From Verrucomicrobiales bacterium (lineage in GTDB: Bacteria; Verrucomicrobiota; Verrucomicrobiia; Verrucomicrobiales; SLCJ01): a DNA stretch of 25,146 bases. The stretch covers positions 1 through 25,146 of the forward strand of contig JBJTQJ010000118.1 of assembly GCA_046075565.1 (NCBI GenBank), read 5' to 3'. Numbering within the stretch: the first letter of the stretch is position 1; each line of letters begins with the position of its first letter. This document shows positions 15,001 through 18,000 of the stretch, piece after piece. A program made the position numbers.

Positions 15001-18000
15001 AACGGGTGGAGTGTCAGAATTGCGGTCGAGGCTCACACGATGCTCTCGAGTGAAAACAAAAAACCCGGGTCCTCGCGGACCCGGGTTTTTTGATAGATTG
15101 GGTTGGATACCAACCGATAGCTCAATACCGGTAGTGGTCGGCCTTGTAGGGACCTTCCACGGACACGCCGATGTAGTCGGCTTGATCCGGGGTGAGTTGG
15201 GTCAGTTTGGCTCCGATCTTCTCGAGGTGGAGGCGGGCGACTTCTTCGTCCAGATACTTCGGCAACACCATAACCTGGCCGGCCGTGTATTTGTCCTTGT
15301 TCTTCCAGAGGTCGATTTGCGCGAGCGTCTGGTTGGTGAACGAGTTCGACATGACGAAGCTCGGGTGGCCGGTGGCGCAACCGAGATTGACCAATCGGCC
15401 TTCCGCGAGCATGTAGAGACTATTGCCGGCCGGGAAGGTGTATTTGTCCACCTGAGCCTTGATGTTGAGTCTCTTCACACCGGGGGCCGCATTGAGCAGG
15501 TCGATTTGGATCTCGTTGTCGAAGTGGCCGATGTTGCAAACAATGGCTTGGTCCTTCATTTTCTCCATGTGCGCAAGGCGGATGATGTCCTTGTTACCGG
15601 TGGTGGTGACGTAGATGTCGGCCCAACCGAGGGTATCCTCGACGGTGAGCACGCGATAGCCTTCCATGGCGGCCTGGAGGGCGCAAATCGGGTCGATTTC
15701 CGTGACCACAACCTGGGCACCGGAGCCGCGCAGGGCTTGGGCGCAACCTTTGCCGACATCGCCGTAGCCGCAGACCACCGCGACCTTGCCGGAGATCATG
15801 ACGTCGGTAGCGCGTTTGATGCCATCGAGCAATGATTCGCGGCAACCGTAGAGGTTATCGAATTTCGACTTCGTCACCGAATCATTCACGTTGATCGCGG
15901 GCACGAGCAGGGTGCCGGCTTTCGCCATTTGATAGAGGCGGTGCACACCGGTGGTCGTTTCTTCGGAGACACCCTTCCATTCCTTGACGATCTCATGGAA
16001 AATGCCCGGCTTCTCCGCATGGATGCTCTTGAGCAAGTCCTTGATCACTTGTTCCTCGTGGCTGCCGGAGGGGGTATTGACCCAGTCGCAACCATTCTCG
16101 AGTTCATAACCCTTGTGGATAAGCAGCGTGGCGTCACCACCGTCATCGACGATGAGTTGTGGACCAAGACCCTGCGGATTGAGAAGGGCTTTCCAGGTGC
16201 ACCACCAGTATTCTTCGAGGGTCTCGCCCTTCCAGGCATAGACGGGAATCTCGCGGGCGGCGATCGCGGCAGCGGCATGATCTTGGGTCGAGAAAATGTT
16301 GCAACTCACCCAGCGCACTTCGGCGCCGAGATCGGCCAGCGTCTCGATGAGCACGGCCGTCTGGATGGTCATGTGCAAGGAACCCATGATGCGGACGCCC
16401 GCCAGGGGTTTCTCTTTTCCGTATTTGGCACGGGTGGCCATGAGACCGGGCATTTCATGCTCGGCGATGTCGATTTCCTTGCGGCCGAAATCAGCCAAGG
16501 AGATGTCGCGGACTTTATAGTCGGTAAAACTCATTTTCGTTAGGTGGTGGTTGTTGTTGGTTTGGGTAGGAGAGAGGGAGACAGAAGATATTGAGACAGA
16601 AGACAGAAGATTAGAAGAACCAGCTGAACAGCGCGTTCACGATGCGGGGACGCAAGTGCTTACGCAATCCTTCGATCATTGAGGAAATCTCTTTCACCTC
16701 GGCGACCATTGGCATGGCATCGGCTTCCGTGAAAAGGTTCGCTCGCAATCCCATATAGATTTGCGTGCGCAACTCACCGGCGGAGCCTTTGGCGATGGAA
16801 AGAAACCTCCGGAACTCACGGTTGCTATCGCGATCCGCTCCCTCGGCAATGTTGCTGGGAATGGAAATACACGAGCGGATCATCTGATCCTTCAATCCGA
16901 AAAGCTTGATGGACTCAACCATCAAAAGCACGTCCACCGCAAGGCGGGATGATCGCTTCCATACTTCAAGCTCTTCGAAATTGTGCATGGACTCCGGTCT
17001 TCTGTCTTCAAGTCTTCCGTCTAAAAGTCTTGTGTCTATTATTTGACCGCCTTCTTGAGCGCGGCCGCCTTGTCGGTCGCTTCCCAGGTCAATTCGGCGT
17101 CGTCTTTTCCGAAGTGGCCGTAGTTGGTGGACTTCGAGTAGATGGGGCGCAGCAGCTTGAGTTGGGTGACGATATCGGCGGGTTTGAAGGAGAAGACCTT
17201 GAGGATGGCGGCGAGGATTTTCTCGTCGGAAACGGTGCCGGTGCCGAAGCTGTCAACATGCACGCTCACCGGCTTCGGATGGCCGATGGCGTAGGCGAAC
17301 TGGATCTCGCACTTCGAAGCGAGGCCCGCCGCGACAACGTTCTTGGCAACCCATCGGCCCATGTAGGCGGCCGAGCGGTCAACCTTCGACGGATCCTTGC
17401 CGGAAAAGGCTCCACCACCGTGGCGACCCATGCCACCGTAGGTATCGACGATGATCTTGCGTCCCGTGAGGCCGCTATCCCCTTGGGGACCACCGACGAC
17501 GAACTTGCCGGTCGGGTTGATGAGATACTCGGTGTCTTTGGTCAGCATGGACTTCGGAAGCACCTTCTTGATCACCTGCTCGATGCAGAATTTTTCGATT
17601 TCGGCGTGCGAGACATCGGCCGCGTGCTGGGTCGAGATAACCACGTTCACGATGCGCGTGGGCTTGCCGTTCTTGTATTCGACGGACACCTGGCTCTTGG
17701 CGTCGGGACGCAGCCACTTGGCCTTCTTGCCTTCCTTGCGGATGCGCGTCAACTCGCGACCGAGGCGGTGCGCATACATGATCGGAGCCGGCATGAGTTC
17801 CGGGGTTTCATCACAAGCGTAACCGAACATGATACCTTGGTCGCCTGCGCCTTGTTCGGCGTGCTTCTTGCCCTCGGCCTTGCGCGCATCCACGCCCTGG
17901 GCGATATCCGGCGACTGGGTGGTGAGGTAGTTGTTGATGAAAATCTGGTCGGCGTGGAAGACATCGTCGTTGTTCACGTAACCGATACCACGGACCGCTT

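Follow-up and report, generated by a model that had tools for sequence, protein, structure and literature searches.

The metK–ahcY spacer holds a small gene between inverted heptad arrays

The window, a stretch of 25,146 nucleotides (positions 1 to 25,146 of contig JBJTQJ010000118.1) from a Verrucomicrobiales bacterium, carries on its minus strand, in this order, metK, a 5′ arm, an IVP gene, a 3′ arm, a CA-rich leader and ahcY. The metK gene (17039..18238), coding for S-adenosylmethionine synthetase and matched by the N, M and C domains of S-AdoMet_synt in Pfam (E 1.8e-34 to 2.5e-65), lies upstream of the cassette and has its stop codon at 17039-17041. One nucleotide past this stop codon begins the 5′ arm (16998..17037), a purine-rich heptad array of the AGACNNN or GAAGACA kind that ends 9 nt ahead of the IVP start codon. 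The IVP gene (16611..16988) was identified with profiles and codes for a four-helix-bundle protein of 125 amino acids of the PF05635/TIGR02436 family (S23p, Avd-related). The 3′ arm (16579..16618), a pyrimidine-rich array of TCTTCTG and TCTGTCT units, is complementary to the 5′ arm and meets the IVP stop codon with an 8-nt overlap. It is followed by the C/A-rich ahcY leader (16535..16578), about as long as the entire metK–ahcY spacer of cassette-less relatives, and, downstream of the cassette, by ahcY itself (15122..16534), coding for S-adenosylhomocysteine hydrolase (AdoHcyase in Pfam, E 1.6e-150). The spacer measures 504 nt, of which the insert makes up about 460 nt.

By local alignment each arm is 40 nt long. 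A repeat search returned an inverted repeat of 31 nt (16579-16609 against 16992-17022) that is 77% complementary and has a perfect 12-mer core. TRF reported period-7 arrays in both arms, the 5′ arm being covered by arrays of period 7 and period 15 at 16997-17038, and the heptad unit of the window is of the GACAGAA kind. Judged by ORF calls, Pfam matches, the repeat search and the sequence, the coordinates and anatomy that the genome-wide survey's note had assigned to the metK–IVP–ahcY cassette hold.

A promoter scan of the region showed no promoter-like site in the cassette. No terminator-like site coincided with the arms, which do not have the make-up of an intrinsic terminator; two such sites were found elsewhere in the region, against 1.0 expected from shuffles. 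Rfam covariance models, including those of SAM and SAH riboswitches, gave no match in 16535-17038 at E values up to 1, and the only weak, leader-like matches, all under the gathering score, fell near 15033-15162.

The 125-residue protein scored above the curated cut-offs of PF05635 (E 1.6e-30, 105.9 bits against 33.8; residues 5-106 aligned to profile positions 1-105 of 106), TIGR02436 (E 4.6e-31, 107.3 bits against 24) and NF008912 (E 6.5e-42, 142.3 bits against 124). PF05635 was the sole domain found, and profile searches revealed no nuclease or recombinase domain. The closest solved structure is 2GSC (E 3.1e-14), which has five chains. None of the four IVPs of the genome matched a PADLOC anti-phage family at E up to 0.01. 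The earlier observation that pN lies below pS was borne out in 230 of 231 ortholog pairs (median pN/pS 0.23, with pS near saturation), and three polar residues, Q35, E49 and E72, are invariant. The IVP gene is clearly under strong purifying selection.

The arms form a predicted, conserved stem with compensatory changes

The minus strand of 16560-17045 was folded as RNA and compared with 100 shuffled sequences. The predicted minimum free energy was −178, compared with −145.2 ± 6.0 for the shuffles (z −5.48), none of which folded as well, and the arms paired with each other in both the minimum free energy and the centroid fold. Pairing was then scored over a 32-bp stem in an alignment of 22 ortholog rows (A1). 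Stem cells were paired in 84.1% of cases, as against 40-54% when the partner was slid by 1-3 columns, and 10 of the 32 stem pairs had changed on both sides. The observed pairing was reached by 0 of 500 shuffles and the covariation score by 1 of 500. Entire units changed jointly in both arms in three orthologs (L023, L026 and L058). Identity within the arms was 0.85-0.86, close to that of second codon positions (0.87), whereas third positions and the poorly conserved ahcY leader both showed a mean pairwise identity of only 0.42. The arms are thus strongly conserved, approximately like second codon positions, and show compensatory change in their predicted stem.

As had been claimed, the stems contain no excess of G-U pairs: we counted 23 G-U against 27 A-C among the orthologs and, in a set of 50 cassettes, 47 against 48. 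If a stem were under selection as sense RNA alone, G-U pairs should be better tolerated in it; the pairing could therefore be maintained at the level of DNA or by copying between the arms. The purine-rich arm came first in 42 cassettes and second in 6. We considered this bias as a strand-specific signal and rejected it, because an inverted repeat reads identically on both strands and hence does not distinguish RNA from DNA, or sense from antisense.

The cassette was retained across an order and lost in some relatives

The cassette occupies the same metK–ahcY spacer in 21 related Verrucomicrobiales genomes; cultured Haloferula strains (L025 and L026) are among its carriers. Of the 24 loci found with the IVP, 23 have the cassette, always at metK–ahcY: 21 are complete, one is truncated and one lies at the end of a contig. 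Among relatives we again saw spacers that were occupied, decayed or empty. Two spacers (L032 and L055) contain IVP remnants, and the empty spacer L036 is sister to the occupied L028 with an SH-aLRT support of 98. A single clade for the metK–ahcY IVPs was not rejected (p-AU 0.67). Because of the remnants, the empty–occupied sisters and the unrejected clade, cassette losses are demonstrated, and the data accord with a single old gain. This goes a step beyond the survey's view that gain and loss are indistinguishable at this site. In several relatives where the cassette is absent or decayed no replacement was visible, which argues that it is dispensable. These data also show long vertical retention of the cassette at one site across an order.

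Signs of recent movement were searched for in several ways. The borders show no target-site duplication and no direct repeat flanks the arms, nor is there a footprint in the empty sites of relatives. Two genomes carrying 16-17 copies each contributed 30 loci, and no pair within either genome exceeded 73% nucleotide identity, so that no recent copies were seen; neither near-identical copies nor an encoded transposase were found. The DNA contigs of four runs yielded no clean excision, a weak result since it concerns contigs only. One joint in these data, from 16488 to 17112 across the cassette, was considered as an excision and rejected: its ends lie inside ahcY and metK and it is accompanied by other joints, for which reason we attribute it to patchy alignment of another organism. 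In all these respects (borders, empty sites, contigs and copies) the earlier statement that there is no target duplication, excision or recent copy agrees with our results.

Inverted heptad arrays flank IVP genes in operons of many bacteria

All four IVP genes reported for this genome, on contigs C118, C15, C73 and C58, were recovered, and they are mutually divergent. Besides the metK–ahcY copy on C118, the C15 cassette has very strong arms (score 98-133, with about 18 upstream heptads) and the C73 cassette moderate ones (score 25, fold z −3.67). The C58 arms, already described as weak, are not above controls (score 15, fold z −0.30).

The arms were next scored at 34 IVP loci from this genome and five relatives against 130 shifted control windows. 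Scores exceeded the 95th percentile of controls at 27 of the 34 loci and the control maximum at 24. In a sample of the phylum (30 IVP loci, 112 shifted controls), 23 loci lay beyond the 95th percentile and 14 beyond the maximum, and the best lag was 7 in 33 of 60 arms and 8 in 10. The arrays are thus mostly, not always, built of 7-nt units; an arm usually contains 3-7 of them. The 5′ arm begins between −5 and +30 nt from the upstream stop codon in 19 of 24 significant cassettes. The inverted arrays, their 7-nt period and their start near a stop codon, all three asserted by the survey, were borne out in these samples. Beyond the phylum, plasmid loci were drawn from six other phyla, cyanobacteria among them, and 16 of the 18 have inverted, mostly 7-nt arrays around the IVP gene; one of these is a true 23S rRNA intervening sequence from Azospirillum. 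The design hence recurs in seven phyla. Within the phylum the family occurs in 64 of 101 sampled genomes, with up to 17 copies per genome. In a tree of 92 proteins no link emerged between the kind of arm unit and the IVP phylogeny; AGAC-type arms are spread over four or more separate regions of it, and orthologous cassettes of a single genus may carry unrelated units (L063 as opposed to L065).

Cassettes sit between operon partners such as ilvB and ilvN, nuoI and nuoJ, nuoK and nuoL, or exbB and exbD; other host pairs are secretion E and F, an adaptor and a pump, and two reductase subunits. Where Pfam matches were available for both neighbors, all three genes were co-oriented at 15 of 16 loci, and the 15 distinct operon sites, metK–ahcY included, are co-oriented without exception. 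This orientation suggests that the cassette is transcribed together with its host operon. IVP family genes also lie in cas6–cas4 and hsdS–hsdR intervals and, in one case, within an hsdM.

Heptad hairpins occur in this genome without an IVP gene as well. A whole-genome scan for inverted arrays, which had no shuffled control, misses weak arrays and has a TRF threshold above the metK–ahcY cassette, returned at least 16 gene-less hairpins among its 18 array pairs (16/18). These ORF-less hairpins occupy tight spacers between co-oriented genes. In one further case in this genome a PIN/RHH pair lies between inverted heptad arrays. An IVP gene is thus not a prerequisite for arms of this type. The loops of the 16 ORF-less hairpins contain no IVP remnants (all below 0.5 bits), and their descent from IVP cassettes is accordingly unsupported in this genome.

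Possible origin and function of the cassette

The reading we prefer, at a probability of about 0.58, is that of an old, promoter-less cassette of the rRNA intervening sequence (IVS) type, which loops out from the transcript of the operon and is probably excised by RNase III, an enzyme whose gene is present in this genome. The cassette would be transcribed within the metK–ahcY message, where a duplex of about 32-40 bp between the arms would loop out the IVP reading frame, restoring nearly the original spacing between the metK stop codon and the ahcY leader. As in rRNA IVSs, the duplex would serve as a substrate for RNase III, separating the metK, IVP and ahcY RNAs. The IVP would be translated, probably as a nucleic-acid-binding pentamer, and be useful enough to be retained. 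The 7-nt periodicity would most likely stem from arms that grow by slippage, a change in one being copied into, or compensated in, the other. Pairing in vivo, cleavage by RNase III, translation and any benefit to the host are inferences.

A broader proposal, which we put forward as rather doubtful, is that heptad hairpins are the normal habitat of PF05635 proteins in many phyla, of which the rRNA IVS would be only a special case; the gene-less heptamer hairpins of cyanobacteria, long known as STRR, and the hairpins dispersed over this genome would be ORF-less relatives. The pentameric ring would act on the heptads, in RNA or single-stranded DNA, with one heptad per subunit, and might govern whether the stem forms, how RNase III processes it, or how the arrays grow and are copied. 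Were it true, three old puzzles would share a single explanation: the IVS ORF, the STRR, and why 7-nt repeats are in excess in bacterial genomes.

Two alternatives deserve weighing. Under the first, the cassette is a host regulatory device whose STRR-like hairpins stabilize the upstream message or keep translational coupling, the IVP being a ring-shaped RNA-binding protein that reads the heptads, one per subunit, and controls stem formation. Arms conserved like second codon positions, the usual 3-7 units per arm and the invariant polar residues Q35, E49 and E72 would suit such a device, as would positions between subunit genes of a single complex (ilvB–ilvN, nuoI–nuoJ, nuoK–nuoL and exbB–exbD) and the ORF-less heptad hairpins in tight, co-oriented spacers of this genome. 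The solved relative assembles into a homopentameric toroid (cited in the accessible text of PMC4990558), and 2GSC has five chains. The STRR hairpins between hupS and hupL have been proposed to act in transcript stability or in translational coupling (PMC2670836, accessible text). Against this alternative stand unit kinds that do not track the IVP tree, unrelated units in orthologous cassettes of one genus, and loss of the cassette in relatives with nothing in its place. We rate this alternative unlikely.

Under the second, the cassette is or once was mobile at the level of DNA. The arrays would correspond to terminal repeats with multiple protein-binding sites, like those of some transposon ends, and the IVP to a DNA-binding mobility factor relying on recombination or replication enzymes of the host. 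What would count is the hairpin as DNA, in cruciform or single-stranded form, and not as RNA. Inward-facing arrays on both sides, up to 17 copies per genome in a family present in 64 of 101 genomes, patchy metK–ahcY occupancy with clean empty sites, and stems that show no G-U excess are all in keeping with this, and the PIN/RHH pair, a toxin–antitoxin combination typical of selfish modules, likewise lies between inverted heptad arrays. Older authors, cited in the accessible text of PMC4990558, had suggested a mobile origin for IVSs. Yet the borders lack a target duplication, recent copies are missing (73% at best among 30 loci, and four divergent copies in this genome), the cassette has kept to one site across an order, and its four-helix bundle of 125 residues includes no nuclease or recombinase domain. 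Co-orientation at 15 of 15 operon sites would be needless for a DNA-symmetric element that drives its own expression; the contigs of four runs, weak evidence as they are, show no clean excision. We regard mobility of this kind as quite improbable.

A chance origin, in which sequence of low complexity happens to adjoin a small gene and no design is shared, would fit the C58 copy and the abundance of short tandem arrays at low TRF thresholds, but it is refuted by the controls (27/34 and 23/30 loci beyond the 95th percentile of shifted windows), by compensatory change in orthologs and by recurrence in seven phyla, and retains next to no probability.

If the preferred reading of an IVS-type cassette is correct, RNase III processing sites are predicted inside the metK–ahcY, ilvB–ilvN, nuo, exbB–exbD and efflux-pump operons. 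The findings also call for caution with guilt by association: the cas6–cas4, hsdS–hsdR and hsdM placements may reflect lodging between co-transcribed genes instead of any role in CRISPR or restriction. The ortholog series, with 22 genomes, saturated synonymous sites and conserved arms, offers a natural experiment on the co-evolution of repeat arrays.

Comparison with known systems

Avd of diversity-generating retroelements belongs to the same fold family (PMC10053308, accessible text). Unlike Avd systems, the cassette has neither a reverse transcriptase nor a template/variable repeat pair, and it lies in a housekeeping operon. REP/BIME palindromes and MITEs resemble the cassettes as intra-operon hairpin repeats that follow stop codons and number many per genome. 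A REP family has one sequence per genome and is tied to a RAYT transposase; here, in contrast, every cassette has its own unit, and there are no near-identical copies and no target duplication.

Heptamer repeats have been described as TAACTGA sets in Beggiatoaceae and near start codons in Nostoc, with intergenic heptamers also in Cyanobacteria and Bacteroidetes, and it has been proposed that slippage favors 7-nt units (PMC4679880 and bioRxiv 10.1101/2022.06.06.494920, as far as their accessible text goes). The Beggiatoaceae and Nostoc repeats are, like ours, tandem, intergenic and adjacent to start codons, but they are mostly direct repeats lacking an inverted partner or an enclosed gene. The accessible text of PMC4679880 mentions neither 'four helix' nor '23S'.

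The cassette shares with STRR, in the accessible description, tandem 7-bp units that form a hairpin between operon genes. STRR are described as gene-less and from heterocystous cyanobacteria, whereas here a 125-residue gene is enclosed and the host is a verrucomicrobium. The 16 or more ORF-less hairpins of this genome are of the STRR kind, and the IVP genes of the cyanobacterial plasmids lie between arrays like these. We found no literature linking STRR to the IVP family; the cassettes connect IVSs with these unexplained heptamer hairpins of operon spacers. A search of literature that takes in few subscription journals and no supplements likewise brought up no report of IVP genes in heptad hairpins outside rRNA.

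The closest likeness is to the ORF-bearing IVSs of 23S rRNA in Leptospira, Coxiella, Azospirillum and others, in which a sense ORF of the same family lies within terminal inverted repeats that pair over some 30 bp. The Coxiella IVS has a 28-bp terminal stem with tandem heptamers, GACAGAT and GACAGAA, directly before the S23p start, and cleavage by RNase III in mid-stem is reported for it (PMC4990558, accessible text). On an Azospirillum lipoferum plasmid (L130) we identified a true 23S rRNA IVS, inside an RF02541 match, with a sense-oriented IVP ORF between inverted arrays of GGACAGA/GGACGGA-kind heptads (fold z −8.56). In both, the 5′ arm has tandem heptamers with a unit nearly identical to that of the window, and 23S IVSs are likewise about 430-460 nt in total, promoter-less and situated in a highly transcribed unit.

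The metK–ahcY cassette differs in its host, an mRNA operon in place of rRNA; both 23S genes of this genome are uninterrupted, with full-model matches in 2823 nt and no insert. It follows a stop codon, whereas a 23S IVS replaces a helix tip. The Coxiella ORF was concluded, in the same accessible text, to be decaying and probably untranslated, in contrast to the purifying selection on the metK–ahcY IVP, and RNase III cleavage is published for the rRNA IVS (PMC4990558, accessible text) and predicted for the cassette. With its long stem enclosing an ORF, the sense-oriented S23p/IVP ORF and the tandem heptamers in the 5′ arm, the cassette nevertheless has the hallmarks of an IVS. The survey's suggestion of an IVS-like design outside rRNA and across the phylum is supported by the Azospirillum IVS, the Coxiella report, and the phylum (23/30) and plasmid (16/18) loci. 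Genes annotated as '23S rRNA-intervening sequence protein' lie mostly outside rRNA and yet keep IVS anatomy wherever they are located, as at 16/18 plasmid loci of other phyla and at 27/34 and 23/30 verrucomicrobial loci, which re-frames a widely annotated, functionless family. The design of these cassettes is, as shown here, homologous to that of a true rRNA IVS.

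Anatomy of the metK–ahcY cassette

The 504-nt spacer between metK (17039-18238, upstream) and ahcY (15122-16534, downstream) is occupied by a gene for a four-helix-bundle protein (IVP), and all relevant genes lie on the minus strand. The 125-aa ORF (16611-16988) matches PF05635 (E 1.6e-30), TIGR02436 (4.6e-31) and, above cut-off, NCBIfam subfamily NF008912; the closest solved structure is the Xanthomonas protein 2GSC. Local alignment places the ORF inside an inverted repeat. The purine-rich 5' arm of 40 nt (16998-17037, minus strand; AGACNNN and GAAGACA units) begins 1 nt past the metK stop and ends 9 nt ahead of the IVP start codon, and the complementary, pyrimidine-rich 3' arm (16579-16618, minus strand) overlaps the IVP stop codon by 8 nt. 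Between the 3' arm and the ahcY start lies a C/A-rich, 44-nt leader on the same strand. The arms pair in the predicted RNA fold (MFE -178 kcal/mol versus -145.2 ± 6.0 for shuffles, z -5.48). No promoter-like site or Rfam family was detected in the spacer region, and no terminator-like site at the arms.

Arms at other IVP loci

Four genes of this genome exceed the PF05635 cut-off, each with its own array unit: AGAC type in the window, GAACATT type on contig C15 (about 18 copies upstream), a GAAGGAA-like unit on C73 (terminal pair GGCAGGGG...CCCCTGCC) and, weakly, GTCAAAG against an 8-nt unit on C58. Arms were scored by local alignment of the 130 nt upstream of an IVP gene with the reverse complement of the 130 nt downstream. 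At the 34 IVP loci of this genome and five relatives, scores exceeded the 95th percentile of 130 control windows, shifted by 800 or 1100 nt, in 27 cases and the control maximum in 24. The family was found in 64 of 101 sampled genomes of the phylum; of 30 loci (one per genome) compared with 112 controls, 23 scored above the 95th percentile and 14 above the maximum, and autocorrelation was best at lag 7 in 33 of 60 arms and at lag 8 in 10. Among the 24 significant cassettes whose upstream ORF is co-oriented, 19 have a 5' arm that starts -5 to +30 nt from the stop of that ORF. The genome-wide survey's note had described inverted heptad arrays around IVP genes, starting close to an upstream stop codon, and both statements hold. 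The C58 arms, which it had called not significant, are so by score and by fold (z -0.30); those of C73 are intermediate (fold z -3.67).

In a related genome, four IVP genes with different neighbours, one of them with an internal stop, lie within less than 12 kb of a single polysaccharide/exosortase cluster (G006 C1:2570925-2582352; L068, L076, L088, L091). Two weak family relatives of about 200 aa were also seen in the window's genome (C3:12184-12900, E 0.015; C2:2650-3300, E 2e-4), with tandem arrays upstream of both (a 9-nt CCGACAGGT unit at C3, GTCAANN units at C2); these may be the second cassette type of the earlier finding.

Operon context and orientation

Pfam searches on neighbouring genes showed that cassettes sit between partner genes of one operon: the acetolactate synthase large and small subunits, nuoI-nuoJ, nuoK-nuoL, exbB-exbD, secretion ATPase E and platform F, a membrane-fusion protein and RND pump, two ribonucleotide reductase subunits, DUF1553-DUF1501, several pairs in a polysaccharide cluster, and a glycosyltransferase and methyltransferase. 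All three genes share one strand in 15 of 16 loci with a Pfam match on both neighbours; counting metK-ahcY there are 15 distinct co-oriented sites, and an antisense IVP was found at none. No evidence other than co-orientation is truly strand-specific. It suggests that the IVP gene rides on the host operon transcript, so that both arms lie within one RNA.

The C73 cassette lies inside an hsdM-like gene (L003 651-2606; C73:36453-38408), just past the DPACGSGG motif. Its match to the N6_Mtase profile restarts at position 172, the central part of the profile up to about 172 being missing, while the frame runs through the cassette without stops for 651 codons. Possible explanations are a pseudogene, coincidence or an insert that the gene tolerates. 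The same gene carries an in-frame, perfect-looking 26-nt palindrome pair at about 1150-1230 of L003 (CTGTAGCGGCGG... and its complement). A related motif, GCCCCGACAGGGTCG, recurs next to several heptad hairpins, and such palindromes may be a separate REP-like repeat family.

Conservation, gain and loss

A search of species genomes with the window IVP returned 24 loci (Luteolibacter, Haloferula, Akkermansiaceae-labelled and other Verrucomicrobiales), 23 of them in a metK-ahcY spacer. Spacers measure 481-569 nt; the cassette is truncated in L032, lies at a contig end in L030 and is complete in the other 21. RNAalifold recovered the long-range stem from an alignment of the window cassette and the 21 complete orthologues. 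In 500 shuffles the observed pairing was reached in none and the covariation score in one, figures that overstate significance because the rows are related. An explicit 32-bp stem has standard pairs in 84.1% of 680 cells versus 40-54% with the partner slid by 1-3 columns, a control free of the kinship flaw, though the stem model itself comes from the sequences on which it is scored. Both sides have changed in 10 pairs, and whole units have changed jointly in both arms: AGACGCA with TGCGTCT in L023, GACGACAGAC with GTCTGTCGTC in L026, and CCAGAC with GTCTGG in L058. Mean pairwise identity of the arms (0.85-0.86, 5-nt internal loop excluded) equals that of IVP codon position 2 (0.87), far above position 3 and the ahcY leader (0.42 each). 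For the IVP, pN is below pS in 230 of 231 pairs (median ratio 0.23, pS about 0.8). Arm identity and pN/pS thus show that arms and protein have both been under selection while synonymous sites became saturated.

We examined the best 30 loci of an order-wide search (121 genomes, ahcY as query). Apart from the window's own, metK adjoins ahcY in 13 of them: five spacers hold an IVP cassette, one a decayed cassette (L055), and seven are short and lack arms. Three of the five use other arm units, of the TTTTCAG/TGTTCAG (L035, L039) or GGTTCAG kind (L060). Of the IVP, L055 retains 15 residues at the N terminus and about 16 at the C terminus, and L032 retains residues 88-124. In the ahcY tree, otherwise poorly resolved, the empty spacer L036 is sister to the occupied L028 (SH-aLRT 98). 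These remnants and the empty sister thus show that cassettes have been lost, by decay and by deletion. For a tree of 53 proteins, the best topology uniting all 27 metK-ahcY IVPs was not rejected (p-AU 0.67), and a single old gain would be compatible with the data.

Heptad arrays without IVP genes

A TRF-based scan, with thresholds chosen for it and without a shuffled control, gave 126 period-7/8 arrays in the genome, 26 with an inverted partner within 1.5 kb (18 pairs). In sixteen pairs the loop measures 20-594 nt and contains no IVP; one pair encloses the C15 IVP, and one (L163, C15:1000-2200; arrays of the TCGAACA/TTCGATG kind at C15:1122-1155 and 1987-2061) encloses a toxin-antitoxin-like pair on the opposite strand, with a PIN domain (E 2.2e-10) and a weak ribbon-helix-helix match (E 0.0043). 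Heptad arms are not exclusive to IVP genes. Several ORF-less hairpins occupy tight spacers between co-oriented genes, and no IVP remnants were found in the loops of such hairpins in this genome. AGAC/GTCT arrays recur at many sites, including window 8715-8813 (AGAGTGA x3, AAGACAG x4.6, CTGAAAA x2.3), intergenic and beside gene starts; with neither inverted partner nor IVP gene there, these look like solitary arms of this repeat class. Read by eye, a GGGGACAGGAGACAGGGGTCAG-kind array at C16:2870-2905 apparently sits in frame in an ORF resembling a glycosyltransferase; its partner arrays are at 2255-2299 and 3187-3231.

Proposed mechanism and alternatives

The feature is real, and its earlier description was accurate. 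The cassette is old, vertically inherited, and dispensable but selected; its best classification is as a cassette of intervening-sequence type that resides in an mRNA operon. It would be co-transcribed with the host operon, its arms would pair in the RNA and loop the IVP ORF out, and RNase III, which this genome encodes, would cleave the paired arms, as reported for the middle of the stem in the Coxiella IVS (intervening sequence; PMC4990558). From design homology with experimentally studied rRNA intervening sequences (IVSs), and from co-orientation, we give this reading a probability of a little under 0.6. Stems read as sense RNA show no excess of G-U pairs over A-C mismatches (23 versus 27 in the orthologues, 47 versus 48 in 50 cassettes), in agreement with the survey's note; this speaks against an RNA-only reading. 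We rejected arm composition as a mark of the acting strand: in 42 cassettes the leading arm is the purine-rich one, versus 6 with the reverse order. An inverted repeat has this property on both strands, and the most it indicates is a tendency to purine richness directly upstream of the enclosed gene.

Alternatively, the arms might form a host regulatory hairpin with an IVP that putatively binds RNA. Across 30 aligned IVPs, only Q35, E49 and E72 (window numbering) are invariant and L32, R38, S42, N46 and R53 nearly so, a polar cluster that suggests a candidate binding or catalytic site. Heptad kind and IVP tree are not congruent; this speaks against a strict code by which the protein would recognise its unit, and favours array turnover. 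We regard such a hairpin as unlikely. A mobile element acting at the DNA level is slightly less likely, since we looked for target duplication and found none, no close paralogues were found (best within-genome identity 73%, 30 loci in two genomes with 16-17 copies each), and no clean excision appeared in the DNA contigs of four runs.

Comparison with known systems

Of 52 plasmid matches (21 + 31), 18 records were examined. In 16 the inverted arrays clearly outscore local controls, and in most of these both arms have lag 7. The 16 belong to Cyanobacteriota (Pseudanabaena, Nostoc, Anabaena, Calothrix, Geminocystis, Stanieria, Gloeocapsa, Planktothrix, Euhalothece), Bacteroidota (Riemerella, Bernardetia), Chloroflexota (two loci), Spirochaetota (Treponema saccharophilum), Bacillota (Monoglobus) and Pseudomonadota (Azospirillum); arrays at the other two, Gemmatirosa and Chondrinema, were not significant. 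Contexts are intercistronic: cas6-cas4 (twice), parA-parB, hsdS-hsdR, helicase-methylase, DUF1156-HEPN (twice) and adaptor-pump. The window cassette is representative of the setting of PF05635 genes across at least seven phyla. The cas6-cas4 cassettes (L125, Pseudanabaena; L129, Anabaena) lie in type I-D CRISPR operons, which may be the reason for the family's CRISPR-associated score in a large clustering study (PMC10910872).

The ORF-less heptad hairpins of this genome are of the same kind as the STRR of cyanobacteria, gene-less 7-bp-repeat hairpins between operon genes (PMC2670836). Beggiatoaceae, Cyanobacteria and Bacteroidetes are likewise reported to have intergenic heptamers, and slippage has been proposed to be biased toward units of 7 nt (PMC4679880). 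No link of either to the PF05635 family was found in the searchable literature texts.

Both 23S genes of the window's genome (C4:16172-18994 and 63515-66337, inverted to each other) are uninterrupted; between them lie octamer hairpins, at C4:33111 and C4:49373, that mirror each other. The Azospirillum cassette (arms of the GGACAGA/GGACGGA kind, fold z -8.56) lies within a 23S rRNA gene (RF02541) and is therefore a classical IVS. The Coxiella IVS, as reported in PMC4990558, has a 28-bp terminal stem, three tandem GACAGAT heptamers and one GACAGAA before the S23p start, a heptamer number that differs from strain to strain, and an ORF that runs in the same sense as the rRNA. Set beside these two, the window cassette therefore matches the rRNA IVS, as there described, feature for feature, the sole difference being the host transcript.
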